Below, piece by piece: positions 1-11,289 of a stretch of 11,289 bases of DNA. The notes beneath the pieces are model-generated. The model was not told where the DNA came from. It was given only the letters and a program-made list of their open reading frames with translations, and did not search any database. How positions within the stretch are numbered: the first letter of the stretch is position 1; each line of letters opens with the position of its first letter. Location of the stretch: IMG/VR virus record IMGVR_UViG_2645728091_000014, positions 1-11,289 of that record; one strand, written 5' to 3'. The DNA is from a virus (Duplodnaviria; Heunggongvirae; Uroviricota; Caudoviricetes). The position numbers were made by a program, and so were the translations under genes.

Positions 1-249
1 ATGCGCACACAGGTTGTATTGCAAAAATGGGGTAATAGCATTGCCCTTCGACTAACGGGAAACCTTAAAACCGTTCCGGGTTTTTCAGTGGGTGATATCG
101 TCAACGTTGAAATTAGTGAAAAGGGGCTTTTTGTAGAAAAGCCTGCACGCCGTCGCCTGAGTGAAGCCGAATTACTCGCCGGGATAACGCCAGTTACAGC
201 GCACGCGGACGAAATTGCCCCCCCATTCAATGAGGAGGTTGATTACTGA
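1..249 (+). CDS. MazE/PemI-family antitoxin (SpoVT/AbrB-type)
   Basis: 82-aa ORF starting with ATG at base 1. N-terminal K-W-G-N-S-x-A-x-R motif is typical of MazE/PemI/ChpS antitoxins. Stop TGA (247-249) overlaps the ATG of the downstream toxin gene (TGATG). Confidence 0.8.
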   Translation: MRTQVVLQKWGNSIALRLTGNLKTVPGFSVGDIVNVEISEKGLFVEKPARRRLSEAELLAGITPVTAHADEIAPPFNEEVDY

Positions 250-593
250 TGTTTGTACCTAAGCGTGGTGATATTTGCTGGCTGGATTTTGAGCCGCAGA
301 AAGGAAAAGAGATCGGAAAGTATCGCCCGGCACTCATACTGTCCCATGAGCAATATAACCGACTCACCGGGCTTGTCATATGCTGCCCCATAAGTACGAG
401 CATACGAAATGCTCCCACAGAAGTTCCGGTAACAAATCTGGACGCCCCCAACGTTGTAGCAACCACACTCATTCAAACCCTTGACTGGCGTCAGCGGAAA
501 GCGCGCTTAATCACAGAGGCAGAAGATGGGGTATTTAATGATGTGCTTGAAAGAGTCATTACCCTGATTGGCGGAGAGCATCTGCTTAAGTAA
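249..593 (+). CDS. MazF/PemK-family mRNA interferase toxin
   Basis: 114-aa ORF with the family-typical N-terminus (P-x-R-G-D-I-x-W-L-D-F-E-P-x-x-G-x-E-x-G-x-x-R-P-A-L-I-L-S), comparable to MazF/ChpBK/PemK. Start overlaps the antitoxin stop. Confidence 0.85.
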   Translation: MFVPKRGDICWLDFEPQKGKEIGKYRPALILSHEQYNRLTGLVICCPISTSIRNAPTEVPVTNLDAPNVVATTLIQTLDWRQRKARLITEAEDGVFNDVLERVITLIGGEHLLK

Positions 594-597
594 AAGG

Positions 598-615
598 AGG
601 GCTGAGAAGCCCTCA
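598..615. terminator. GC hairpin between convergent genes (possible bidirectional terminator)
   Basis: GAGGGCT (598-604), loop GAGA, AGCCCTC (609-615), lying between the toxin stop and the stop of the minus-strand 423-aa ORF. The T-tract is weak on both strands. Confidence 0.35.
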
Positions 616-636
616 ACGTTACCGGAAATTTCCTTG

Positions 637-1908
637 CTATTCTTTCCAGTCAATCCCATCCAGTAAGCACCCTGCTTCATATTGCCCCACCACCCAGTCA
701 AGGTTACAGGACTCATAGAACGCGAGGCGATTATACTGAGGCTCGTTTTTTACCAGGCCACGAACGGAACCACGCTGCCAGTACAGACACAGATTGGCAA
801 GAGGTGTGATCAATACAGCATTGTCCGGGAAAAATGGAACGGTCACAGCCGGGAGATTCCCCAGAACAGGATTTTTAATGATTTCCTCGTTAAGCAAAAT
901 TTCCTGATTCATCTGCGATGGATCAAGACGGTTTATCAAAGGCCATTGCTTACGGACCAGCGTATTGTGACTGCATACGGCCACAATGCCTTCCTGCCAC
1001 TGTTCATCAATCATGGATTGCCAGGCATCCAGAACGAGCGCATCTATCGTATGGTGTGTACCGCGTGTATTACTTTTCGGTGATGAAACAGAAAGGCCGC
1101 TGATAACCCTTCCCGCCGCTTCATTTCGAAACTTCTGCAACCAGCCCACGCCGCAATCATCACGCCCCGGATATGTTCCGGGATCTGATGTATCGGCATA
1201 GTGCGTACCGTTAAAACCAATCTGAATCAAATCCAGCCATTTCCGGCGTTCAAAAGCAGCCCGTGCGCTTCCTTCAAGACCGTTTGCGGATGCGTGAGCA
1301 TCAACATTGTCGTAGTTCAGCGCAAAATCAAAATTAACCTGCTCGCAGCGGTAGCCCCTTGAAACCAGTGAATGCGCCTGTAGTGGCGAACGGCGCGCGT
1401 GAGACGGTGATGTGCGTGCCAGCGGCCCCGAAGCGTCTACCAGCACAACCCGACCTGATATATCCGTAACAGGCACGGGAGTTATTTCAGCAAGGAAATT
1501 TGCCTGCCATCCACTGGCAAGCGTTGCACTCTGGCGGGGAACAGGCTCAACTTCTGATGAATAGCGCGCAGTGTCATCGGAAAAGTGCAAGTCCTTCGGA
1601 TGCTTTCCGGTTATCGACTCGATAGCGAGATTGAAAGCTATCTGAGACTGTTGATTTCGTTGTGACACAACAGAACCAGCAGTGCGATTATAACGCTCAA
1701 TGCCGTTGTTATTGCCCTCACCGTTTGCAGAATGCAGGGTGTGAAGCTCGAGTTCGCGCTCCAGTTTTTGATATTCATTGTCCAGGGCGCGACGGGTTTC
1801 ATCGCTTATGCCTGCTGTATTTGCTTTCAGGCGATTCCGGGACATTGATCCCCTGAGTCGGCTCACTATATCAGCGACGTGCAAATGTGGAATGTTCAGA
1901 CCGCCCAT
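637..1908 (-). CDS. hypothetical protein ORF2 (423 aa), function unknown
   Basis: Long minus-strand ORF. Preferred start is the ATG at 1908-1906, which overlaps the TAA stop of ORF1 (minus-strand TAATG) and is preceded by GGGGGTGG. The track's 470-aa version starts at 2049 and would overlap ORF1 by 141 nt. No Walker A, CxxC or other motif recognised by eye. Confidence 0.7.
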   Translation of the reverse strand: MGGLNIPHLHVADIVSRLRGSMSRNRLKANTAGISDETRRALDNEYQKLERELELHTLHSANGEGNNNGIERYNRTAGSVVSQRNQQSQIAFNLAIESITGKHPKDLHFSDDTARYSSEVEPVPRQSATLASGWQANFLAEITPVPVTDISGRVVLVDASGPLARTSPSHARRSPLQAHSLVSRGYRCEQVNFDFALNYDNVDAHASANGLEGSARAAFERRKWLDLIQIGFNGTHYADTSDPGTYPGRDDCGVGWLQKFRNEAAGRVISGLSVSSPKSNTRGTHHTIDALVLDAWQSMIDEQWQEGIVAVCSHNTLVRKQWPLINRLDPSQMNQEILLNEEIIKNPVLGNLPAVTVPFFPDNAVLITPLANLCLYWQRGSVRGLVKNEPQYNRLAFYESCNLDWVVGQYEAGCLLDGIDWKE

Positions 1909-2618
1909 TACTGCCACCCCCGGCAGAGTTCTCTGCCCTCCGCAAGGTCGCGCATTTTTTCTGAATTCTGTCGCGCTGCGCTCCATTGTACAGGTGAAGG
2001 GGCGCTCCTGATTGCGCAGCTTACTGAATCCGGGAGTTTCTCCGGGCAATAACGCAGCGGGCTGGAGGTGTCGCTTTCGGTATCGTTAATCCGGCCGCGA
2101 ATCATCCCGACACTTTCAGCAGTATCTGCCGCTTTCAGTGTTTCGCATATTTTCTTTTCTGCGTTATACAGCGGCTGGCCAAGCAGCTCACATAAACCAC
2201 GAATCAATAACAGAACAGGGGTCAGCTCGTTAATCAGTTCGGGAAGTGCTTTTGCAAATATCTCTGCCCGCAACTTATTATCAATACTTTCGTAAGCACA
2301 ACCAGCCTCTGCCGCGTTATAACGACACTCCAGTAGCCTGATGCGCGCCTCATCATGCAGCACCCGCAGACGCTCAAGATTTTCTCGCGCCACACCCGCC
2401 TGAATGGATAATTTCGCGGAGGCTTCCGTTTTTACTCCCAGCGCAGACAGGATTGAGTTCTGCCAGTCACGATCGAGAGACTCCAGTTCCCCTTTCGTCT
2501 GTTCGATAGTCGCTTCCAGATTGGTGACTAATGATTCCTGTTCACTGAGTTTTGCCCTGGCAGTATCAAACCGTGCTTTACATACCTGATGTTCGGCGCT
2601 TGCCTGAGTTATATCCAT
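1908..2618 (-). CDS. hypothetical protein ORF1 (236 aa), predicted helical; possibly Psu-like
   Basis: ATG at 2618-2616 preceded by AGGAG with a 6-nt spacer. N-terminal half is rich in heptad-like charged/Leu segments. Weak resemblance to my recollection of P4 Psu (N-terminal FDT, central A-L-x-P-E-L...E-L-T), unverified. Confidence 0.7.
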   Translation of the reverse strand: MDITQASAEHQVCKARFDTARAKLSEQESLVTNLEATIEQTKGELESLDRDWQNSILSALGVKTEASAKLSIQAGVARENLERLRVLHDEARIRLLECRYNAAEAGCAYESIDNKLRAEIFAKALPELINELTPVLLLIRGLCELLGQPLYNAEKKICETLKAADTAESVGMIRGRINDTESDTSSPLRYCPEKLPDSVSCAIRSAPSPVQWSAARQNSEKMRDLAEGRELCRGWQ

Positions 2619-2627
2619 TATTTGCTC

Positions 2628-2728
2628 CTGTAATACATTTTTTACTTACGCCGATTTTTTCCATATTGCGTAATACATTCCAGCCGATTTTGTTCTCGTA
2701 ATACGCTCACAATACTGTTGTATTACGC
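2628..2728. promoter_or_regulatory. divergent control region with four GTAWTAC heptamers
   Basis: GTAATAC at 2630-2636, 2670-2676 and 2698-2704; inverted GTATTAC at 2720-2726. Lies between the starts of ORF1 (minus) and the RHH gene (plus). The ORF1 ribosome-binding site abuts the first copy. Confidence 0.45.
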
Positions 2729-2782
2729 TTTCTTATATCGCGGGTGTTAAATCCCGGCATAAACAATCAGGGAGGCAACACG

Positions 2783-3016
2783 ATGAAAAAACAAAAGAAA
2801 ATGCGATGCGTATTACGCTGTATTCGTATCCCGCACGAAATCGACCATAAAATAAATCAGATGTGTGAGGACAGAGAGATGAACTACTCCCAGTGCGTCA
2901 GAATGTTTATCAGTCAGGGAATTAAGGCCGGGGAAACGCAGGAAGAAGACCGTGACGGGCGCAATGTGGCGGGGGATGTGTGGGCCTGGGCAAATGACCA
3001 GAACCACACGACGTAA
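2783..3016 (+). CDS. putative ribbon-helix-helix (Arc/CopG-like) DNA-binding protein
   Basis: 77-aa ORF from ATG 2783 preceded by GGGAGG with a 7-nt spacer (the track's 2744 start is a GTG without an RBS). Residues VLRCIRIP then two helices (EIDHKINQMCEDREM, NYSQCVRMFISQG) fit the beta-strand/helix/helix pattern of Arc/MetJ/CopG repressors. Confidence 0.55.
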   Translation: MKKQKKMRCVLRCIRIPHEIDHKINQMCEDREMNYSQCVRMFISQGIKAGETQEEDRDGRNVAGDVWAWANDQNHTT

Positions 3017-3066
3017 TACAGCAATAACGCAGCCGGTCACACTCGCTGGCTGTGTTATACAAATCA

Positions 3067-3249
3067 CTATGAAGTTTTCGCCTTCCTGCGCTTAGTGATG
3101 CGTACAAACGACTCAAGCGTACAAAAACAAGCCCCACACTCAATATTATTGCACTGGTAATACGTTCTGTAGATGTTTTGTTCGTGTTCTTCCAACGAAC
3201 GACCACGGGTGCGGGCTGAAGCGCCACAGGCCGGGCAAGGGAAAGACAT
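3067..3249 (-). CDS. ogr: Ogr/Delta-family zinc-finger late-gene transcription activator
   Basis: 60-aa ORF with C-P-x-C...A-R-T-R...Y-x-C-x-N-x-x-C...F-x-T-x-E-S, matching the Cys4 pattern and spacing of P2 Ogr / P4 Delta. AGGAG 6 nt upstream of the ATG. Confidence 0.8.
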   Translation of the reverse strand: MSFPCPACGASARTRGRSLEEHEQNIYRTYYQCNNIECGACFCTLESFVRITKRRKAKTS

Positions 3250-3283
3250 ATCACGCTCCTCTTACTGGTGTGAAATTTAACCT

Positions 3284-3289
3284 ATTATA
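3284..3289 (-). promoter_or_regulatory. candidate -10 hexamer (TATAAT on minus strand) for ogr
   Basis: Perfect TATAAT on the minus strand about 35 nt upstream of the ogr ATG. No convincing -35 at 17 bp, so activator dependence is possible. Confidence 0.3.
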
Positions 3290-3610
3290 TCTTCCGCCGC
3301 CTCCTCTGGCTGTATCAAATAAACCCGCAGCAGTCGCCGCGTATTACGCACGGGCGCACCGTTCTCATGCTCACTCGTCACATTCCCCGTATCAGTTCTC
3401 TCTTGCCGTAAGAACGGCTCTGGCTGGCGATAAAACTAACCCGGTCGGGCATTCCCGCAGCCTTTAGCGAAAATGTCATTTACCCCCTGAAACGCGTGCT
3501 GTTCCCCCGTCACCTGCGCGCGAAAAACTCACCGTTTTTTGTGCACGCACGAAATCGCCCTCCGGGCGCGCCAGTACTGGGCCGGATGGGCAAAAAGTTA
3601 CTCTAAAAAA

Positions 3611-3637
3611 TTGTGCAAATTTGTGCACTTTTGTGCA
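3611..3637. repeat. three direct TTGTGCA repeats at exact 10-bp phasing
   Basis: TTGTGCA at 3611-3617, 3621-3627 and 3631-3637; a fourth copy at 3539-3545. Two copies extend to the palindrome GTGCAC. Confidence 0.6.
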
Positions 3638-3862
3638 GATGAACAATAGCGTCAAAAAGAGTGCTTTTGAGAGATTTTTTATGGCAACTGCGCCGCGTGT
3701 ATTACGTTTTTTACCATCCCCGCCGTGCATGTACATACTTCATTTTCTGCCAAACAACAGGGCAACTCCCCGTGACTGACAGCCCCAAAAAATCAATGAT
3801 TAATGTTGCATTTTTGTTAGAGATTAGACCAGTTGTTTTGGGGCTCTGCCTCATAATCCGGT

Positions 3863-4179
3863 GGGGGGTGCGCAAAGCGGTTACAACGGTTACAACAGTT
3901 AAAAACACAACTTAACAGTATGATTTTAATGGATATTGTTTGTAACCGCTTTGCGGTTACACTGCGGTTACAACGGTTACAGGTTTCAAAAAGCACTTTA
4001 TTATCAATCAATTAAAAACTTAACCTGTAACCGCCTGTAACCTAACAAAACGGTTACATGTAACCGCGTTGTAACCGCTTTTGTAACTCATCCGACCAGT
4101 TATAATATATTGATATATAATACAAAAATAAGTAATTCTAAATTTGTAACCGTTGTAACCGCTTTGCGCATCCCCCCCC
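3863..4179. repeat. iteron array bounded by a perfect 27-bp inverted repeat; putative ori/crr-like or att-arm region
   Basis: 3869-3895 (TGCGCAAAGCGGTTACAACGGTTACAA) is the exact reverse complement of 4144-4170, extended by G6 (3863-3868) / C8 (4172-4179). At least 13 GGTTAC/GTAACC hexamers lie between, as direct repeats (3878-3895, 3953-3981, 4024-4043) and palindromes (3941-3961, 4051-4066). An AT-rich stretch sits at 4100-4143 and an IHF-like WATCAANNNNTTR match at 4002-4014. Confidence 0.6.
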
Positions 4180-4366
4180 AAACTTTAGCGCGACCCTTTA
4201 AAATGTTAATTAAACTCACTTACTCTGTCTCATTCTCATTAACTCTCTGTGATTAAAATGTATCTCGTCATTATTTGACTCTTTCTGATAATCAGGGGGC
4301 AAAAAATTGATGGCGGCACCACTGCAATATGGCCACCATTGCATTGCCGTTACCGTTGGTTCTGGC

Positions 4367-4397
4367 CAACAAAAAAGGTCAGCGGGAAACTGACCTC
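4367..4397 (-). terminator. rho-independent terminator downstream of int
   Basis: Stem GGTCAG (4377-4382) / CTGACC (4390-4395) with 7-nt loop. On the minus strand it is followed by TTTTTGTT, 30-60 nt after the int stop. It is also T-rich on the plus side. Confidence 0.6.
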
Positions 4398-4425
4398 TTT
4401 TGCTGTGAATGTAGCGTTCTGCGGG

Positions 4426-5430
4426 TTACTCTGCTGGCTCTTTTTCTTCGATGATCACTATGTTGGCTACCGGGTTAAATCTCATGGCATCTGCCAGATA
4501 ATCCGGTGCAAAATGTGCGTATGCCATAGTCTGCTGAATTGTCGCATGCCCAAGGATTTTTTGTAGCGCAAGAATGTTGCCACCGTTCATCACAAAGTGA
4601 CTGGCGAATGTATGCCGCAATACATGCGCAGCCTGCCCCCTCGGTAAATCGGGTTTTATTTTTTTTAATGCCCGGCAAAACTCTCTATACTTCACATCAA
4701 ACAGTCGCCCGGTTTCTTTTGTTTTTACGGCATCGCATATTTCCTGCGACACAGGCACCGTTCTTTTTCTACCGTTTTTGGTTTCCAGAAACGTTATTCT
4801 ATTATGAACTATTTGCTCTCCATGCAATCTGCTGGCCTCACTCCAGCGGGCTCCGGTACATAGACACAAGAGCGCAACCCTTCGTTGATCTCCATTCAGC
4901 CCGTCAAGCAACAATGTGACCTCGTTTTTTGATAAAAAGGCCATTTCCCGCTGCTTTACATAAAGAACAGGAATACCACGAACCGGATGCTCTGCATCCC
5001 ACAAACCGATCTTTTTCAGGGCTGTAAACATCCCCGATAATCTGTTCATGTATCTGTTTGCTGAGGACGGCTTTAATCCTTCCGCAATTTTCTGCGATCG
5101 CCATGCAATGATTTTTAATTTGTCGAGTTCTACCGCAAACATGTCAGCTCCAAGCTCATTAATAATTTTGCCAAGCTGCTGTTTATCCGTGTTTGCCTTT
5201 CGCCTGTGCTGACCGTGATAAACCCACCACAATTCCAGTAAATCGCTAAGCGTTCTCCGGTCGCGATAGCCCTGTATAAACTCGCGCTTTTCGGCGTTCG
5301 CTATGATGTACCGTTCAGTTGCTGTAGCTATCGATTTTTTGTCAAATATTCTTCTGATGCGCTTCCCTTTACGTCCGCATGGCCTGATATCGAGCAGCCA
5401 CCGCCCATCATGCATCTTTCTGATCGGCAT
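4426..5430 (-). CDS. int: tyrosine recombinase / phage integrase (P2-type)
   Basis: C-terminal H-x-L-R-H-T...L-G-H...Y catalytic motifs. N-terminus (DGRWLLDIRPCGRKGKRIRRIFDKKS) resembles P2/186-type integrases. Preferred ATG at 5430 lies 2 nt after the primase stop with AAGGAGG upstream; the alternative ATG at 5466 adds 12 aa. Confidence 0.9.
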   Translation of the reverse strand: MPIRKMHDGRWLLDIRPCGRKGKRIRRIFDKKSIATATERYIIANAEKREFIQGYRDRRTLSDLLELWWVYHGQHRRKANTDKQQLGKIINELGADMFAVELDKLKIIAWRSQKIAEGLKPSSANRYMNRLSGMFTALKKIGLWDAEHPVRGIPVLYVKQREMAFLSKNEVTLLLDGLNGDQRRVALLCLCTGARWSEASRLHGEQIVHNRITFLETKNGRKRTVPVSQEICDAVKTKETGRLFDVKYREFCRALKKIKPDLPRGQAAHVLRHTFASHFVMNGGNILALQKILGHATIQQTMAYAHFAPDYLADAMRFNPVANIVIIEEKEPAE

Positions 5431-5432
5431 GT

Positions 5433-8102
5433 TTAACGCCCCTCCTTGTAACTGAATATCCGGCATTTCAGTACTTCCGGCTCTCTGGCCTCGGCGACCC
5501 CTCTTCCGGCGTTTGCCTGTCTGGAGACCTCACTACGAATGGTTTTGCGGCCTGTCAAAGGTCGGGAACGTCCTGCTCCGAGCAACTCAATCATTTCGCG
5601 GTCAGTGCGGATCTCCACGCGGTGAATAGCGGCAGCCTGTGCCAGTTGCGGAATACTGATAGCAATCCCCTCGCGGCATCCCTTGCCGTAGTGGTTTACA
5701 CCGTATTTTGTTATGCCGTCCAGGAAGTCGAACGCCTCCCAGAACTCCATCACTTCCGGTAAATCAGCCGCCGCCGCTTTAACCTGCGCTGTTGCCATTT
5801 GTTCCAGTTCCAGACATGTGGCATCAAGCCATTCATCTGGGATATCAATAACGCATTTCAGCGCCCTGACCAGCGCGATAAGTTGTGCGTGATTTTTGGC
5901 GATGCGGGGATGGCGAATATTTTCGCATCCGCAAAGGCGTTCCGTTTCAACTGGAGATACTTCCAGGAACGTTTGCATAATCGCCCGTTCCTGACTTGCC
6001 GCCCGGTGAATAAACCCAGATACCTTCTCGACGGGGTAAAGTTCCAGCCGTCTCGCCGCCAGGCGGGTATCAGGTGAATGGCGTTTTTTATCGGTGTATA
6101 TGCGTATCAGGCGCTCAATAATTGCCGGAGAGGCGTTTACCCGCGCATTCTGCGCAATCACGATAGCGCCCTTAAAATCCGGATCATAGGTGTTGTTATT
6201 GTTGGCCTTAACACCACGAACGCCGATACCACCGCCGTTATAGAGACTTTTCAGGTTATCGAAGTCAAACGCACCTCTTTTTTGCGCATTGTCTCCCCGG
6301 TCCGCTTCAATCAGAACAACAGGTAATCCGGCGACCTGTCCAAAGGTGCGCTTCCAGCCCGCCTCTGATCCTTTGGTTGGATCAACGCCTTCATAGTTGT
6401 CACGACCGCACAGCCGCCAGCAAAAATCAATCAGTGTTGATTTACCCGTTCCGGGCTCCCCGGTGACTTCAAGGAAGGGGAAGGATTCTTCTTTATCCCG
6501 GATTTGTTCGCTGAACAGGGAGCCCAACCAGAAAGCCAGGGTAATAATTCCCTTTTCACCAAAAGCCAGCCAGAGATCTTCCACCCAGGACGCTGTAAAT
6601 TCATCCGGTTTTTTGTAGTTAATCTGTAATGTGGGTTTTTCGCTTAATGGTTTTGCGTTTATGCCATCAATTTCAAAATAATCCTCATCATTGATTTCAT
6701 AAGTTTTACCCTTATAAACGGCAATATCATTAAACAGCCATGCCCCAATTCCCTTGTTGTATCCGATAAAATCCTGACCAATAACCTCTTTTATTGCGGG
6801 AAGGTCATTTTTTATTAATGCGTCAAGCTGCGTAGTCGTTCCGGTATAAATACCGCCTTTTGCCACGTGCAGCAGGCGTTTTTTAAATTCAGATGAGGAT
6901 GTTAATTGTCCTGATGTAAAGGTGTTTTTCACCGTAGCACCATCCGGGAATGTAACGCGGAAGTAATACCATGCTTCATCCGTGTCATTGTTTCGAATGT
7001 AATAAAGCGGCACTGGGTTACAGTTTGCGATTTCTTTTACAGCACCGGATTCCTTAAGTGCAATTTTGCGCGCTTCGTCTTCGTCAACATTTCGCTCATT
7101 AATGACACGCTCAACAGCCTTCATATGGCGCTCAATGTCCAGCTTGAACCAGAAAACACGGTTATCAAAAGTAAAATGAAATTCCTTCCGCTCACGAAAG
7201 GAAAACATTATTAGTGCCTTATCTCTTGGAGATTTCGCCAGCAATAAATCACCGTAATAACGGTATCTTTTCACATCATGGCCACGCAGCTTTCCGGCGA
7301 TGTGTAAATCATTCCAGTCGCGTTTATTGCTGTTTTTACCCGGTAACGCCGCCGCCGTTCTCCAGCCGTCTTCGGCGCTGCGTTCTGCATGTTTTTTCGC
7401 GTAACGTTCACCCGCACGCCCGTTATCCAGGGCCCACACAATAACCGGACGGGGATTATCTCCGCACAGCTTCGCCAGCTCTTCCAGCGCCTTATCAGGG
7501 TAGTTCACGGCAGACATGACAGAAACGGCCGCAATGCCATTCTGGTTAAGGCTGATGGCATCAAAGATGCCCTCACAAATCCAGATTTCTTTGGCCTTGC
7601 TTAAATCTGCTCCCGGATAAGCCCACCACAACCCCTTGTAGCTGCCGGAAAAATTCGCCTTGCGCGCGAAGCGTCCCGGTCGGTCTATGATGCGCTCCCA
7701 CCACACGCCGTCAGCCAGCGTAAAACGCACAGTAGCGGCCTGTTCGCCGTTTTCCTTGTCCTGGTATCGCTCCTGAGTAAATGCGCCCTTCAGTGGCCCC
7801 ACAGCAATATTGCGCGCTTCCTGAAGATAAGCTGCCGCCGCTGCATATGGCTCATCTTTCGTGCTGATATAACGATCTGACCATGATGAAAACACATCCG
7901 GGTAAAGTTCTTTGGTCAGCAGGTCTATACCGCATTTATTTTCGCGCCCACAGTGTACGATGTACGGCCTTTCAAGGCTGGTAAACAACTCTTTCTTTCC
8001 ACATTGCGGACAAACACCATACCGGAGGTAGTTATTTTCTTCTTTGAAGTTGTAATCACGGATAAGACGGTTAATAATCTCTTTTCTGATGTCAGATTTC
8101 AT
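5433..8102 (-). CDS. alpha-like DNA primase-helicase (zinc-binding N-terminus, TOPRIM primase, SF3/D5-type helicase)
   Basis: N-terminal C-P-x-C...H-C...C zinc motif, TOPRIM-like E-G-I-F-D-A and L-D-N-G-R-A-G, and Walker A G-E-P-G-T-G-K-S-T. Preferred ATG at 8102 with GGAG 8 nt upstream; the track start at 8126 is a GTG inside a hairpin. Confidence 0.9.
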   Translation of the reverse strand: MKSDIRKEIINRLIRDYNFKEENNYLRYGVCPQCGKKELFTSLERPYIVHCGRENKCGIDLLTKELYPDVFSSWSDRYISTKDEPYAAAAAYLQEARNIAVGPLKGAFTQERYQDKENGEQAATVRFTLADGVWWERIIDRPGRFARKANFSGSYKGLWWAYPGADLSKAKEIWICEGIFDAISLNQNGIAAVSVMSAVNYPDKALEELAKLCGDNPRPVIVWALDNGRAGERYAKKHAERSAEDGWRTAAALPGKNSNKRDWNDLHIAGKLRGHDVKRYRYYGDLLLAKSPRDKALIMFSFRERKEFHFTFDNRVFWFKLDIERHMKAVERVINERNVDEDEARKIALKESGAVKEIANCNPVPLYYIRNNDTDEAWYYFRVTFPDGATVKNTFTSGQLTSSSEFKKRLLHVAKGGIYTGTTTQLDALIKNDLPAIKEVIGQDFIGYNKGIGAWLFNDIAVYKGKTYEINDEDYFEIDGINAKPLSEKPTLQINYKKPDEFTASWVEDLWLAFGEKGIITLAFWLGSLFSEQIRDKEESFPFLEVTGEPGTGKSTLIDFCWRLCGRDNYEGVDPTKGSEAGWKRTFGQVAGLPVVLIEADRGDNAQKRGAFDFDNLKSLYNGGGIGVRGVKANNNNTYDPDFKGAIVIAQNARVNASPAIIERLIRIYTDKKRHSPDTRLAARRLELYPVEKVSGFIHRAASQERAIMQTFLEVSPVETERLCGCENIRHPRIAKNHAQLIALVRALKCVIDIPDEWLDATCLELEQMATAQVKAAAADLPEVMEFWEAFDFLDGITKYGVNHYGKGCREGIAISIPQLAQAAAIHRVEIRTDREMIELLGAGRSRPLTGRKTIRSEVSRQANAGRGVAEAREPEVLKCRIFSYKEGR

Positions 8103-8115
8103 ATATAAAACTCCA

Positions 8116-8145
8116 CCCCACTGCACCTTTTGCAGTGGGGTTTTT
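8116..8145 (+). terminator. perfect 10-bp GC hairpin plus T-run in the primase 5' leader
   Basis: CCCCACTGCA (8116-8125), loop CCTTT, TGCAGTGGGG (8131-8140), then TTTTT (8141-8145) on the plus strand. On the minus strand the stem is followed by UGGAGUUUUAUAUAUG, which contains the primase RBS and start. Confidence 0.45.
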
Positions 8146-8150
8146 ATTAA

Positions 8151-8450
8151 TTACTCGTTACTTATTGCTTTGGCAATCCCGGCGGTTTCGGCACTATGCC
8201 ATGAAAAAATTCCGCCAGAAGTATGCATTCCTGACTTAATCGCTCGTAATTCCCGATAAAGAATGTTAGTTAATGATTCCATTTCATTAATTTGCACTGG
8301 CATTCTCTCACTGGTATTAATTTCACCTGTCAATGCTGAAAGGAGCGCAATAACATTTATTACATCTTCAAGATTCTCAATGGAATCTTCCGTGAAAAAA
8401 CCAGCGTATTCTTTTTTGTATATATTGCGGATATTCTGATTTTCAGACAT
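8151..8450 (-). CDS. hypothetical protein (99 aa), AT-rich
   Basis: ATG at 8450 preceded by GGGGAG with a 5-nt spacer. Visibly more AT-rich than the flanking primase and small-ORF block. Confidence 0.5.
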   Translation of the reverse strand: MSENQNIRNIYKKEYAGFFTEDSIENLEDVINVIALLSALTGEINTSERMPVQINEMESLTNILYRELRAIKSGMHTSGGIFSWHSAETAGIAKAISNE

Positions 8451-8517
8451 AAAAACTCCCCGACCCGTTAAGATCGAAATATAAATTTAATTCAGTTATC
8501 AGTTGGTAATTCGGGAA

Positions 8518-8736
8518 TCAGGCGGAAAGCTGCGTCACCTTCAACGCTTTGAAATGTGTCATTCCCAGCTCTTCCAGCCCTTCGGCTGCGCGGCGTATGG
8601 CTTCGCCCGGTCCCGTTCCGTATACCGTTGCATGTGCATGTTTGGTTAACCCACGTTTATTAACGGCATAACCCAACACAAAGAAACGTTTTTCACCACT
8701 GCCATTATTTTTACGGGATATTGAACGGCTTTTCAT
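8518..8736 (-). CDS. hypothetical small protein (72 aa)
   Basis: ATG 8736-8734 overlaps the TGA stop of the upstream ORF (ATGA), indicating translational coupling. Confidence 0.5.
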   Translation of the reverse strand: MKSRSISRKNNGSGEKRFFVLGYAVNKRGLTKHAHATVYGTGPGEAIRRAAEGLEELGMTHFKALKVTQLSA

Positions 8737-8921
8737 TTCTTCACCTTTAGCACTGATGCTGTGAGTTCTTCTTCTGGCAATTGATATTTCGGCGCAATTT
8801 CTTCCGTATACCTGATAGCATCCCTTGCCGCTTTTCCTTTTGATTTATATTTACGTATCGTGTAGAAGTTTTCTTCCTCTCCTGTTACCACATTACGCAA
8901 TTTAATATGAATCTCGTACAT
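8733..8921 (-). CDS. hypothetical small protein (62 aa)
   Basis: Preferred ATG at 8921 is preceded by GGAGGGG and sits 2 nt after the TAA stop of the upstream ORF. The track version starts 10 codons earlier at 8951. Confidence 0.5.
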   Translation of the reverse strand: MYEIHIKLRNVVTGEEENFYTIRKYKSKGKAARDAIRYTEEIAPKYQLPEEELTASVLKVKK

Positions 8922-8923
8922 CG

Positions 8924-9106
8924 TTACCCCTCCATGATTTTTACTGCGCATTTGTGGGTTAATCGCCCCTGTTTGTCATTGCGGGAATATGCCATACGAC
9001 AGGCATCACGCCATGCATCGTCATAAGTCGGATATTCCCAGGAATGAATCATCTGGCGAACGTCGCCGTTCTGGTAGTTAATCAGGGTGATAAGGAGCTT
9101 AAACAT
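8924..9106 (-). CDS. hypothetical small protein (60 aa)
   Basis: Preferred ATG at 9106 is preceded by GGGAGG about 7 nt upstream. The track's 86-aa version (start 9184) has no RBS. Confidence 0.5.
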   Translation of the reverse strand: MFKLLITLINYQNGDVRQMIHSWEYPTYDDAWRDACRMAYSRNDKQGRLTHKCAVKIMEG

Positions 9107-9272
9107 GGCACGCCTCCCGGACACGGATACGGGCAACAAAGACCAGACGGGATGCCGGAAGCATGGCGCGCGCTTCGCGCTCACTGGCAGCGGTAACGGT
9201 ATGAAGGCGAATATTTTTACCGTGGCACTGCATAAAGCGCCAGATAAAATCAGGGCGTGTTGATATAGCCAT
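9099..9272 (-). CDS. hypothetical small protein (57 aa), possibly Icd-like
   Basis: ATG at 9272 preceded by AAGGAG. The track's 175-aa extension to 9626 is low-complexity and lacks an RBS. The E-R-E-A-R ... L-V-F-V-A-R-I motif pattern resembles my recollection of Icd-like proteins in P4-like prophages, unverified. Confidence 0.4.
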   Translation of the reverse strand: MAISTRPDFIWRFMQCHGKNIRLHTVTAASEREARAMLPASRLVFVARIRVREACHV

Positions 9273-9629
9273 TTTGGCGGCTCCTTGATTAAGTTTACGG
9301 AGTCTCGCCAGCACGCTGCTAAACATGGTGGCGGGACGTAACAGGGTTAGCAGACTGGCAATCAAGGAACCAGCGAGCGCAAAGGCTCCCCCATTACGCC
9401 CCGCCATAATACGGGGTAGGGTGGAATTACGGGCACAAAAAAACCGCATTACGGAAATATAGCGGCTACCCGCTTGATTGTTCAGGCTGCTAAACCCGGC
9501 ACCCGCTTTATGAGGTGCGGGCAAACGATACGCCATGACAAAAAAGCGAGTCAAGCAATATTGCAAATTATTTTTGCTCACTTGCGCTGAGTGATTGATT
9601 TTAAAGAGTAAAAAAGCCATAATCATTTC

Positions 9630-9720
9630 TGCCTATTACTTCTTATTGCTGACTTTAGGTGCATTAAATGCACATCCTTGACTGGTTGGCTCGCTAGCTT
9701 CAGCGAGCTTCTTTTTTTTT
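9630..9720 (+). ncRNA. candidate ~90-nt plus-strand small RNA, antisense to the minus-strand operon leader
   Basis: Plus-strand TTGATT (9595-9600), 17-bp spacer, CATAAT (9618-9623), then a GTGCATT/AATGCAC hairpin (9659-9673) and a terminator hairpin with T-run (9689-9720). No plus-strand ORF of note. Confidence 0.25.
9689..9720 (+). terminator. intrinsic terminator oriented on the plus strand
   Basis: GCTCGCT (9689-9695), loop AGCTTC, AGCGAGC (9702-9708), then TTCTTTTTTTTT (9709-9720). On the minus strand the A-run precedes the stem, so it is not a minus-strand terminator. Confidence 0.5.
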
Positions 9721-9820
9721 GCTCTGCTGCCAGTACTTGGCCTCCTTCCCCCACATGTAGCAATACGTTCAGATCAGTAAGTTTTGCCACCCAGTGATGG
9801 ACGCAATAAACCACCAACGC

Positions 9821-10141
9821 TTATTCAACTCTGGCGCTACCGGATTCTCTCTCCCTTTTCTTTTTGGCGTTTTCGTATGGGTTATTCACTTTGGCAATAA
9901 CTGGCGGATTACGTAGCCACCACAAAACATCACTTAACAGCCAGGTACATGAGCAACGCCCCAAAGAGTGACGAGGAGGAAAAGCACCGATCTTCTCCAG
10001 TTCCCAGCGGCGGGAGCGTGAAAGCGTGGTCATTTTTTTACACTTCTCTTCCCTGATGCGTTCTTCGCAGTCAAAGCCATACTCGGCGAGTATGGTGCGG
10101 CGCTGTTCTGGAGTTGGTGGAATGAATGCGGATTGAGTCAT
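9821..10141 (-). CDS. alpA: AlpA/Vis-family phage transcriptional regulator (excisionase-like HTH)
   Basis: 106-aa ORF. The segment L-S-R-S-R-R-W-E-L-E-K-I-G-A-F-P-P-R ... W-L-L-S-D-V-L-W-W-L matches the AlpA HTH pattern. Confidence 0.8.
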   Translation of the reverse strand: MTQSAFIPPTPEQRRTILAEYGFDCEERIREEKCKKMTTLSRSRRWELEKIGAFPPRHSLGRCSCTWLLSDVLWWLRNPPVIAKVNNPYENAKKKRERESGSARVE

Positions 10142-10202
10142 ATTTCCCCCTATGTTTCTGAACTTTCGGGGGAGATTTTTGTTTTACGGAGTTTTGAAAG
10201 CA

Positions 10203-10239
10203 AGTATTAAAGGTCTTATTAAGATGCTTGCTGGTCTTA
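10203..10239. repeat. two 15-bp direct repeats 21 bp apart in the alpA upstream region
   Basis: GGTCTTATTAAGATG (10203-10217) and GGTCTTACTGAGATG (10224-10238), 13/15 identical, overlapping the 3' end of the 350-aa ORF. Confidence 0.35.
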
Positions 10240-11289
10240 CTGAGATGATGCTTTAATCCATCTTGATATAGTACTTTTATCAAAGCGCATATTGAGTCCT
10301 GCCTCTCTTGCTTCCGCGGTCAATATATCAGCAAGTTTTACCGGATTGTTTTCGAGTTCTTTATAATGAATAACAAGCATCGCACGAAAAAAATCCTTCA
10401 TTGTTTTAGATAATCGTTCTATATTGTTTTTATTGGTGCATATGTCTTTCTCTCCATCCTCAGAACTTAATATATTGTTACCCGCACACAAATATAAAGT
10501 ATCTGCCAATGGATTAACATAATCTTTTCTTAACTCGCTATTGGAGTTTGTAGCATTTTGTATTTTTAAAAAATCATTCTTTAAGATATATAAATCACCA
10601 ATATCAAAAGAAACATCCTCAGTAACAATTAGTCCTATATGTATATCAACGTCAGAAGCAATTATAATATTGCTATTAATTATTCGGTTGGCTTTAAACT
10701 TCTTATTAAAATCATAGTTGGCAAAAAAACTTCCCCCCAAAGCGAAAATGCCGCCTATTTCAACAAAATACTTATGGTATTTTTCTTGAATACCTTTAAA
10801 TACTGGTGGCACAACTGCCACAGCTCTTTCATCCGTTGCTATTCGATATACACTATATATGTGATAATTTTCCCCATAATATACCCCCCTGTTATAATAA
10901 TTTAACAAAGCAAATGCAGTATCAATTGCTATGTCACCAAATTTGGGCGTTACATATGAATGACTTAGAGATTCGCACATTGAATCAAATATAATTCTCG
11001 ACTTGGTTTTTATATAATTAAAACCATGGTGTTCTGCCGCCCTTTCTGAAATGGCATCAAGATCAGATAACCGTGATTTACACGGTTCTGAATCCATAAA
11101 CTTACGCAGACAATCGAAATTAACCACATCTTTTTCATCTGGGATATTTAATACTCCATATGCAGATTCAATTTTTATACAAATACGAATGCAGCCTGTC
11201 ACAGCCCAATGAATAAGATCGTCAATATCGCAGTCTAATAACTTTGCCGCGCGCTCAATAGGATAGTAATCTCTTAGTGGTAACGTCAT
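10237..11289 (-). CDS. hypothetical protein (350 aa), AT-rich, HTH-like segments at both termini
   Basis: ATG is the last three bases of the window, so the true start may lie upstream. N-terminal Y-P-I-E-R-A-A-K-L-L-D-C-D-I-D-D-L-I-H-W and C-terminal A-D-I-L-T-A-E-A-R-E-A-G-L-N-M-R-F-D-K-S-T-I-S-R-W-I-K look like helix-turn-helix elements. A weak G-G-S ... S-D-V-D-I stretch was noted. Confidence 0.65.
   Translation of the reverse strand: MTLPLRDYYPIERAAKLLDCDIDDLIHWAVTGCIRICIKIESAYGVLNIPDEKDVVNFDCLRKFMDSEPCKSRLSDLDAISERAAEHHGFNYIKTKSRIIFDSMCESLSHSYVTPKFGDIAIDTAFALLNYYNRGVYYGENYHIYSVYRIATDERAVAVVPPVFKGIQEKYHKYFVEIGGIFALGGSFFANYDFNKKFKANRIINSNIIIASDVDIHIGLIVTEDVSFDIGDLYILKNDFLKIQNATNSNSELRKDYVNPLADTLYLCAGNNILSSEDGEKDICTNKNNIERLSKTMKDFFRAMLVIHYKELENNPVKLADILTAEAREAGLNMRFDKSTISRWIKASSQ

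Follow-up and report, generated by a model that had tools for sequence, protein, structure and literature searches.

The DNA examined in this study comprises positions 1 to 11,289 of the IMG/VR virus record IMGVR_UViG_2645728091_000014 (11,289 nucleotides, hereafter the window), and its interval 9273-9820 is most probably (probability of about 0.88) the immunity control region of a P4-like phage satellite, acting on the minus strand. The assignment is based on homology, layout, complementarity between RNA segments and co-variation among relatives; the processing, the termination and the role of translating a long reading frame proposed below follow by analogy with P1 and P4. The original prediction had found a plus-strand promoter and terminator in the same interval and had proposed an antisense RNA of roughly 90 nucleotides over the leader of the replication operon, analogous in principle to the CI RNA of P4 or the C4 RNA of P1. 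It was correct in the kind of immunity, an RNA-based one located in the leader, but not in the strand or the motifs. Two minus-strand RNA elements of Rfam classes lie inside the interval and had been missed, and the relation to CI and C4 is one of homology rather than analogy, as seen in a full match to the Rfam C4 model and in about 80% nucleotide identity to the corresponding region of P1 and P7. A region of E. coli 600468 (NZ_CP025849) between hpt and gcd matches the window at 100% identity, and the ST131 strain 2019_APHA also carries the sequence at 100% identity. Among the genes of the element are a primase, a capsid gene of the P2 family and an ogr/delta-like gene. The element corresponds to a P4-like phage satellite of the "hpt PICI" group (PICI, phage-inducible chromosomal island) integrated between hpt and gcd of E. 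coli. The hpt PICIs are known, and C4 and isrK profiles have been reported to detect relatives of CI and seqA in Gram-negative PICIs (PMC10111431), so that profile matches of both kinds are already on record for a broader satellite set.

The whole window was scanned on both strands against the Rfam covariance models, and the matches lie in order behind a promoter. This operon promoter, TTGACT-18-TATCGT, lies at 9554..9525 on the minus strand, is the analogue of PLE in P4 and of P51 in P1, and aligns with the P7 promoter; it has the lowest diversity of the region (0.018, conservation of stretches being given here as pairwise diversity), and its transcript is predicted to start near 9518. The first element (9518..9437, minus strand), of the seqA/IsrK/a1b1 type, matches the full isrK model RF01394 with 52.1 bits against a gathering score of 50. 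It begins 7 nucleotides past the -10 box of the operon promoter, as in P4, carries the first targets b1 (9494..9487) and a1 (9480..9473), and ends in a hairpin followed by seven U residues, with the 3' end GCGGUUUUUUU. Downstream, the C4/CI-type immunity RNA at 9411..9324 (minus strand) matches model RF01695 (C4) over positions 1-87 of 87 with 74.7 bits, against a gathering score of 45 (E 1.7e-13). Its predicted fold has an energy of -45.8 kcal/mol and presents the loops a' (9369..9359) and b' (9353..9347), and a 3' GCCACCA motif together with an acceptor-like stem is visible in the sequence. The second target, an a2b2 element analogous to seqC, follows at 9323..9278 on the same strand and consists of b2 (9323..9316) and a2 (9291..9278); a2 spans the Shine-Dalgarno sequence AAGGAG (9286..9281) of the first leader gene, 8 nucleotides before its ATG at 9272. 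The a' loop pairs over 14 nucleotides with a2 and over 8 nucleotides with a1, and the b' loop pairs over 7 nucleotides with each of b1 and b2.

The complementarity is maintained across relatives. A set of 31 related loci was assembled from E. coli genomes, viral contigs and metagenomes, in all of which the leader has an identical length. Seven a-alleles and two b-alleles were distinguished (the a' segment reads CUUGAUU in the window and CUCUUAC in L002, for instance), and in 30 of the 31 loci a1, a' and a2, as well as b1, b' and b2, change together; pairing of the cognate loop and target extends over 7-11 nucleotides in 30 of the 31, and pairing across alleles is mostly weaker. Such a matched change of loop and target alleles is the pattern of the hetero-immune pair P1 and P7. 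The co-variation provides strong evidence of selection on the RNA-RNA contacts. The comparison shows that the immunity specificities of these satellites are interchangeable and number at least 7 x 2, with loop and targets co-varying strictly. They amount to a natural set of orthogonal RNA repressor-target pairs and also indicate mutual exclusion among co-circulating satellites.

On this basis, the following course of events is proposed for the satellite. The constitutive promoter at 9554..9525 would start a leader at about 9518, in which the a1/b1 target with its weak terminator reaching to 9437, the C4/CI RNA of about 88 nucleotides and the a2/b2 target over the ribosome-binding site of icd follow one another. 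The C4 RNA would then be excised from the leader; in P1 and P4, this excision of C4 and CI is performed by RNase P. Both loops of the released RNA would pair with both targets, by which translation of icd would be blocked and transcription terminated prematurely. Because of this dual block, the downstream replication genes (primase, 5433..8126) would be kept off both in the resident element and in an incoming element of the same specificity. Translation of a long frame (9626..9099) on read-through transcripts from alpA would override the termination.

The first translated gene of the leader is located at 9272..9099 on the minus strand and encodes a product of 57 amino acids, which matches NCBIfam NF033153 (phage_ICD_like) with 56 bits against a cut-off of 25; in position it is the analogue of icd in P1 and of kil in P4. 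The gene starting at 9272 is Icd-like and not alpA, and the AlpA-family gene is the one at 9821..10141. When relatives were sought in genomes of the species by means of the 57-residue protein, 600 pattern matches were obtained and none was confirmed. In phase with this gene, an eta-like nested frame of 175 or 173 codons (9626..9099, minus strand) begins at ATGATTATG upstream of the operon promoter, crosses the RNA elements and ends as the Icd-like gene. The 118 codons upstream of the icd ATG contain no stop, versus 7 and 10 stops in the other two frames. In a comparison of 32 loci (28 distinct sequences), the frame was open in every one; its start was always ATGATTATG, except for ATAATTATG in two loci, and an in-frame stop was found 2-5 codons upstream of the start in 31 of the 32. 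The claim that the interval held no credible open reading frame (ORF) consequently stands for 9627-9820 but fails for 9273-9626, which the 175-codon frame covers, and the comparison indicates that 9273-9626 is both RNA-coding and kept translatable. RefSeq places a 173-residue "host cell division inhibitor Icd-like protein" at 9620 to 9099 and annotates no RNA there, and the Icd-like domain is restricted to residues 125-167 of that coding sequence, within its last 57 codons. The present reading would correct the locus in about 100 E. coli genomes, with a C4/CI RNA, two target sites, a 57-residue Icd-like gene and an eta-like frame.

The closest parallel in organization is P4, which shows the same order and strand logic (PLE - seqA - CI RNA - seqC - kil, nested in eta). 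The same Rfam models match in the same order behind the promoter, with 74.9 bits for C4 and 60.8 bits for isrK in P4 against 74.7 and 52.1 bits in the window. When P4 was checked, kil (65 amino acids) was found to end the eta frame of 197-199 amino acids, which starts from ATGATGATG upstream of PLE; as in the window, the short first gene is the tail of a long frame whose start, marked by clustered ATG codons, precedes the promoter, with an AlpA/Vis-family gene upstream and the primase downstream. According to the account of Forti et al. (1999) given in PMC10111431, immunity-dependent termination is prevented when eta is translated on transcripts that come from the late promoter upstream. The window differs from P4 in its nucleotide sequence, which is closer to P1 and P7, P4 not being among the blastn matches; in its first gene, which is Icd-like; and in the 195 nucleotides of non-coding DNA, including a plus-oriented terminator, that precede the eta-like start, at a place where vis and eta overlap in P4.

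The sequence itself is related to the immI region of P1 and P7 (P51 - a1b1 - c4 - a2b2 - icd - ant). Positions 9314-9499 share about 80% nucleotide identity with a region of P1, P7, SJ46 and RCS47 that is annotated as c4 in the P7 record. The b1, b' and b2 segments are identical between the window and P1/P7, including a 19-mer around b1 that is identical to that of P7. Moreover, the P7 leader aligns colinearly with the window between the promoter and the icd start, and the promoter, b1, C4 and b2 are conserved, whereas a' differs together with a1 and a2, as it does between the hetero-immune phages P1 and P7. The location of a2 over the icd ribosome-binding site and the Icd-like nature of the first gene are likewise shared. 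In contrast to P1 and P7, the window region controls satellite replication genes and not the antirepressor ant, and has no C1 operator upstream; P7, for its part, lacks the eta-like extension, having only 11 open codons upstream of icd. IsrK has been described as a structural homologue of P4 seqA (PMC4825925), and the first leader element of the window matches the full model of the isrK RNA (IsrK small RNA, STnc1160) of the Gifsy-1 isrK - orf45 - anrP locus in Salmonella. Because it ends in a hairpin and a U-run, this element could also yield a short terminated RNA in addition to read-through mRNA (PMC4825925). In Gifsy-1, the short IsrK activates translation in trans, and the downstream genes differ from those of the window.

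Several observations weigh against the assignment to a P4-like immunity region. The RF03163 (c4-a1b1) model reaches only 29.5 bits at 9531..9479, under its gathering score of 46.7; the same model also falls just under that score on seqA of P4 itself (44.1 bits), and the stretch is already covered by the isrK match. BLASTP of the Icd-like protein against P4 Kil gave no alignment, so the analogy with kil is positional only. The distance from the alpA stop to the eta-like start is 195 nucleotides, and in P4 the eta start overlaps the vis stop; translational coupling in the manner of P4 is therefore not possible in the window. Finally, the locus L052 (metagenome contig OLHG01004078; loci are cited by our own numbers where needed) has an a' segment CUCUGAC that is mismatched to its own a1 and a2 (AAUCAAG), whereas its b1, b' and b2 do match one another. 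As a separate observation, L052 may be a recombinant with broken or altered immunity.

The features on which the original prediction was built are present on the plus strand of the same interval, that is, a promoter, a small hairpin and a terminator ending at 9720. The sigma-70-like promoter TTGATT-17-CATAAT at 9595-9623 (hexamers at 9595-9600 and 9618-9623) would start a transcript near G9631. It had been called good, and it does agree with the consensus at 9 of 12 positions, but matches of this quality occur in the whole window at chance density (21 against 18.3 +/- 3.7 in shuffled sequences). All 31 related loci with the operon promoter retain both hexamers, although the spacer differs at 9 of the 16 compared positions between two types of body described below. 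Read on the opposite strand, CATAAT is ATTATG, which contains the start codon of the eta-like frame, and TTGATT falls within conserved codons of that frame; given this overlap with the start codon and the coding sequence, the conservation of the hexamers can be explained without any promoter. The two promoters stand back to back, and in the stretch that separates them a patch of 5-7 hypervariable nucleotides (9577-9583) occurs in at least eight versions among the 28 distinct sequences and alters two residues of the eta-like product (VS, AS, SR, AR, SH, HR, YR, LH); this patch could be another specificity determinant or an operator.

The small hairpin of the plus strand is a perfect DNA palindrome, GTGCATTAAATGCAC, at 9659-9673, which could form a hairpin in either RNA or serve as a protein-binding site. 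Its hairpin has an energy of -6.4 kcal/mol (z -1.8), and its diversity is 0.034 versus 0.14-0.15 in the flanking non-coding DNA. The intrinsic terminator at 9688-9720 has the form GGCTCGCT-AGCTTC-AGCGAGCT followed by TC and nine T residues. Its stem-loop (9688-9709) contains 8 pairs, of which 5 are G-C, with -12.8 kcal/mol and z -2.5, and it ranks third of the 31 terminator-like sites of the window (13.3 +/- 3.3 expected from shuffled sequences), so that its description as strong is justified. It had been suggested that conservation or covariance of the two hairpins be examined in related elements. Conservation was found for the terminator, in which all 8 pairs are invariant in 11 distinct relatives while the loop and the length of the T-run (6-9) vary, but compensatory changes were absent; since the stems never vary, they offer no evidence from co-variation in either direction. 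The palindrome is kept with changes in the loop only in loci resembling the window, and is replaced in L051.

Two unrelated bodies of the plus-strand unit were distinguished, namely type A, which resembles the window and measures 88-91 nucleotides, and type B (L004, L005, L015, L016, L019, L053 and L062), which measures 67-70 nucleotides and abuts the stop codon of a capsid gene. Plus-oriented terminators close both types of body, with energies of -12.8, -16.6 and -19.9 kcal/mol (z between -2.5 and -4.3), and neither type of hairpin is followed by a U-tract on the minus strand. Diversity within the 3' half of type A (9658-9709) is 0.03-0.05, similar to the flanking genes, against 0.14-0.15 in the next 100 nucleotides; a value of 0.10 places the 5' part of the putative RNA with the more variable stretches. 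As a whole, the 93-nucleotide plus-strand candidate folds unremarkably in comparison with shuffled sequences (z -1.07). The Rfam scan gave no plus-strand match within 9273-9820, and under permissive settings the plus strand gave only chance-level scores of 16.9 and 15.8 bits against a gathering score of 41. A literature search for the hairpin and terminator sequences found them in no paper. Of 29 distant C4 loci scanned, all with the b1 19-mer in common, three have a divergent terminator-like site upstream of the promoter, and in L028, the one such case examined closely, the site lies inside a terminase coding gene. The plus-strand feature is lineage-specific, because the distant C4 loci do not share the divergent terminator. 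We take the promoter-terminator pair to be a real sequence feature of this satellite lineage. By its placement, it is a separate, putative small transcription unit, back to back with the operon promoter and not part of the C4 switch. That a discrete transcript arises from it has about even odds, and that it has a regulatory role about one chance in four.

The interpretation of this unit requires several explanations to be weighed. The proposal that a plus-strand antisense RNA of about 90 nucleotides serves directly as the repressor of immunity or replication by acting on the leader of the operon, like CI or C4, is very improbable. It has in its favor that the promoter and terminator motifs exist and that the region is conserved in relatives, but the unit lies upstream of the operon promoter (9554..9525), so that it is not antisense to the constitutive leader and has no overlap with it from about 9518 onward. 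Furthermore, the leader, on the opposite strand, already contains a genuine C4/CI homologue whose targets co-vary with it, the unit does not change with the a or b immunity allele, and pairing between the plus RNA and the leader is no better than in shuffles, a fraction of 0.69 (type A) or 0.37 (type B) of which pair at least as well. Action in trans through a shared UCCUUGA opposite a2 was also considered and was rejected, the predicted duplex energies being no better than those of shuffled sequences and the motif not following the a-allele. The sequences opposite the plus unit occur only on read-through transcripts from alpA, and there the plus RNA, if made, would be antisense to the AGG at 9634..9632 and to 90 nucleotides upstream of the eta-like start, which suggests a possible role in limiting eta translation. 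Accordingly, the unit could be a genuine cis-antisense small RNA (from about G9631 to 9720 in the window, about 68-70 nucleotides in type B) that lowers eta translation on read-through transcripts from alpA or the capsid gene and so keeps termination and immunity effective, a reading that we regard as tentative and, on the whole, unlikely. In its favor, both unrelated bodies terminate 67-91 nucleotides past the predicted start with hairpins that lack a U-tract on the minus strand, the spacer has diverged between hexamers that are retained, 9658-9709 is conserved like coding DNA, the predicted 5' end is complementary to the AGG, and distant E. coli satellites carry a divergent plus-strand YlcI/YnfO gene with terminators at the same spot. 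Small cis-antisense RNAs of phage control regions are familiar from sar of P22 against ant and OOP of lambda against cII. Like these, the plus unit, if transcribed, would give a terminated RNA of 70-90 nucleotides that faces the operon and is complementary to a translation-initiation region; it differs in having no sequence relation to them and in that it would target only read-through transcripts, at their eta-like frame. Against a small RNA stand the chance density of the promoter match, the confounding of hexamer conservation with the eta-like start and coding sequence, the invariant stems that leave co-variation silent, the unremarkable overall fold without an Rfam match, and the absence of the feature from P4, where vis and eta overlap. 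In addition, the divergent terminator-like site recurs in only 3 of the 29 distant C4 loci, that of L028 being within a coding gene, and in type B the overlap ends just short of the ribosome-binding site.

The chance is only slightly less than even that no discrete RNA is made at all, the promoter match being a by-product of the eta start, the terminator being an insulator, or the remnant of a lost divergent gene cassette, that halts stray antisense transcription before it enters alpA or the capsid gene, and the palindrome being a DNA site for a protein. This would account for the promoter statistics and the start-codon confound, for the greater variability of the 5' part of the putative RNA, and for a palindrome that is perfect as DNA and altered only in its center. 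Relatives with a protein-coding divergent unit, whose terminators stand just before the alpA 3' end, point in the same direction. These are the YlcI/YnfO cassettes of L065, L066 and L068, which occupy the same position between alpA and Icd/C4 in the plus orientation and encode proteins of 59-101 amino acids. As distant E. coli satellites carry a divergent gene there, divergent transcription from this spot is taken to be ancestral. The window has no such coding sequence, and a remnant of a YlcI/YnfO gene, sought in the interval, was not found, which argues against a decayed cassette; moreover, neither a strong terminator retained in two unrelated versions nor the coding-like conservation of 9658-9709 would be expected of a remnant. 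The idea that 9623-9817 is simply coding is the least credible of the explanations. Both candidate frames exist in the window, namely a minus-strand ORF of 64 amino acids (9623-9817), whose TGA overlaps the eta-like ATG (ATGA), and a plus-strand hydrophobic ORF of 28 amino acids with a TTG start (9595..9681, MILKSKKAIIISAYYFLLLTLGALNAHP), which resembles a small membrane toxin. The former, which the original prediction had held could prove to be a conserved protein and so undo the antisense reading, is not conserved: indels of 1-3 nucleotides in the T-run (6 to 9) and elsewhere shift its frame in relatives, 19 to 89 open codons precede the ATGA, the N-terminal halves are unrelated, and no Pfam or NCBIfam match was obtained. 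The 28-residue frame stops after 14 codons in type B, most substitutions in it change the amino acid, and it has no family match; because its TTG start sits in the -35 box, it begins upstream of the predicted transcript start. The 64-residue frame, being shifted or truncated in relatives, was thus rejected as a gene, and the 28-residue frame was rejected as a type I toxin-like peptide, as it is not conserved and has no usable start within the transcript.

If the small RNA exists, it could form a second RNA layer above the C4 switch, in which the plus RNA would gate the bypass that depends on eta translation and would thereby decide whether read-through from alpA or from late genes switches on replication; this layer would have arisen twice with unrelated bodies, replacing a YlcI/YnfO-type gene. 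We consider this scenario quite unlikely. The plus-strand unit, if real, would link antisense control to the translation-dependent anti-termination that is known from P4.

Other observations concern the relatives of the control region. The YlcI/YnfO genes lie at 2350-2529 in L065, 2343-2648 in L066 and 2340-2519 in L068, and their products have an N-terminus of ribbon-helix-helix-like type (MAT..KNAKSQ.TTVR.P); the protein could be a regulator of the immunity promoter region. In Erwinia tracheiphila (L036, 2180-2623), two tandem C4 copies flank an isrK element. Two other C4-bearing loci, L024 (7635-7702) and L035 (897-969), contain the int-alpA RNA motif RF02996, which is absent from the window.

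The upstream neighbor of the control region, at 9821..10141 on the minus strand, encodes an AlpA/Vis-family regulator of 106 amino acids, which matches Pfam PF05930 (Phage_AlpA) with 30.5 bits against a cut-off of 21 and is labeled in RefSeq as a helix-turn-helix or AlpA-family regulator. A late-promoter box of the Ogr/Delta type (TGT-N12-ACA) was absent from the gap next to alpA, and the single match in the window lies at 10890. Downstream of the control region, the strongest hairpin of the window (8115-8141; 11 pairs, 7 of them G-C, with T-runs on both strands) sits between an ORF at 8151..8450 and the start of the primase gene (8102/8126), and could be a bidirectional terminator or an attenuator ahead of that gene. 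Immediately after the primase comes a second integrase-like gene (4426-5466, 346 amino acids); a tyrosine integrase is also present just outside the window, beside gcd. The capsid gene (637..1908) is followed by a minus-oriented terminator of its own (614..597), and a MazE/MazF-like pair at 1-593, the sole plus-strand gene set, is found at the end of the element. At the opposite side, an ORF of 350 amino acids between alpA and the integrase (10237-11289) has no Pfam or NCBIfam match and varies among relatives, in which different protein accessions occupy this position.

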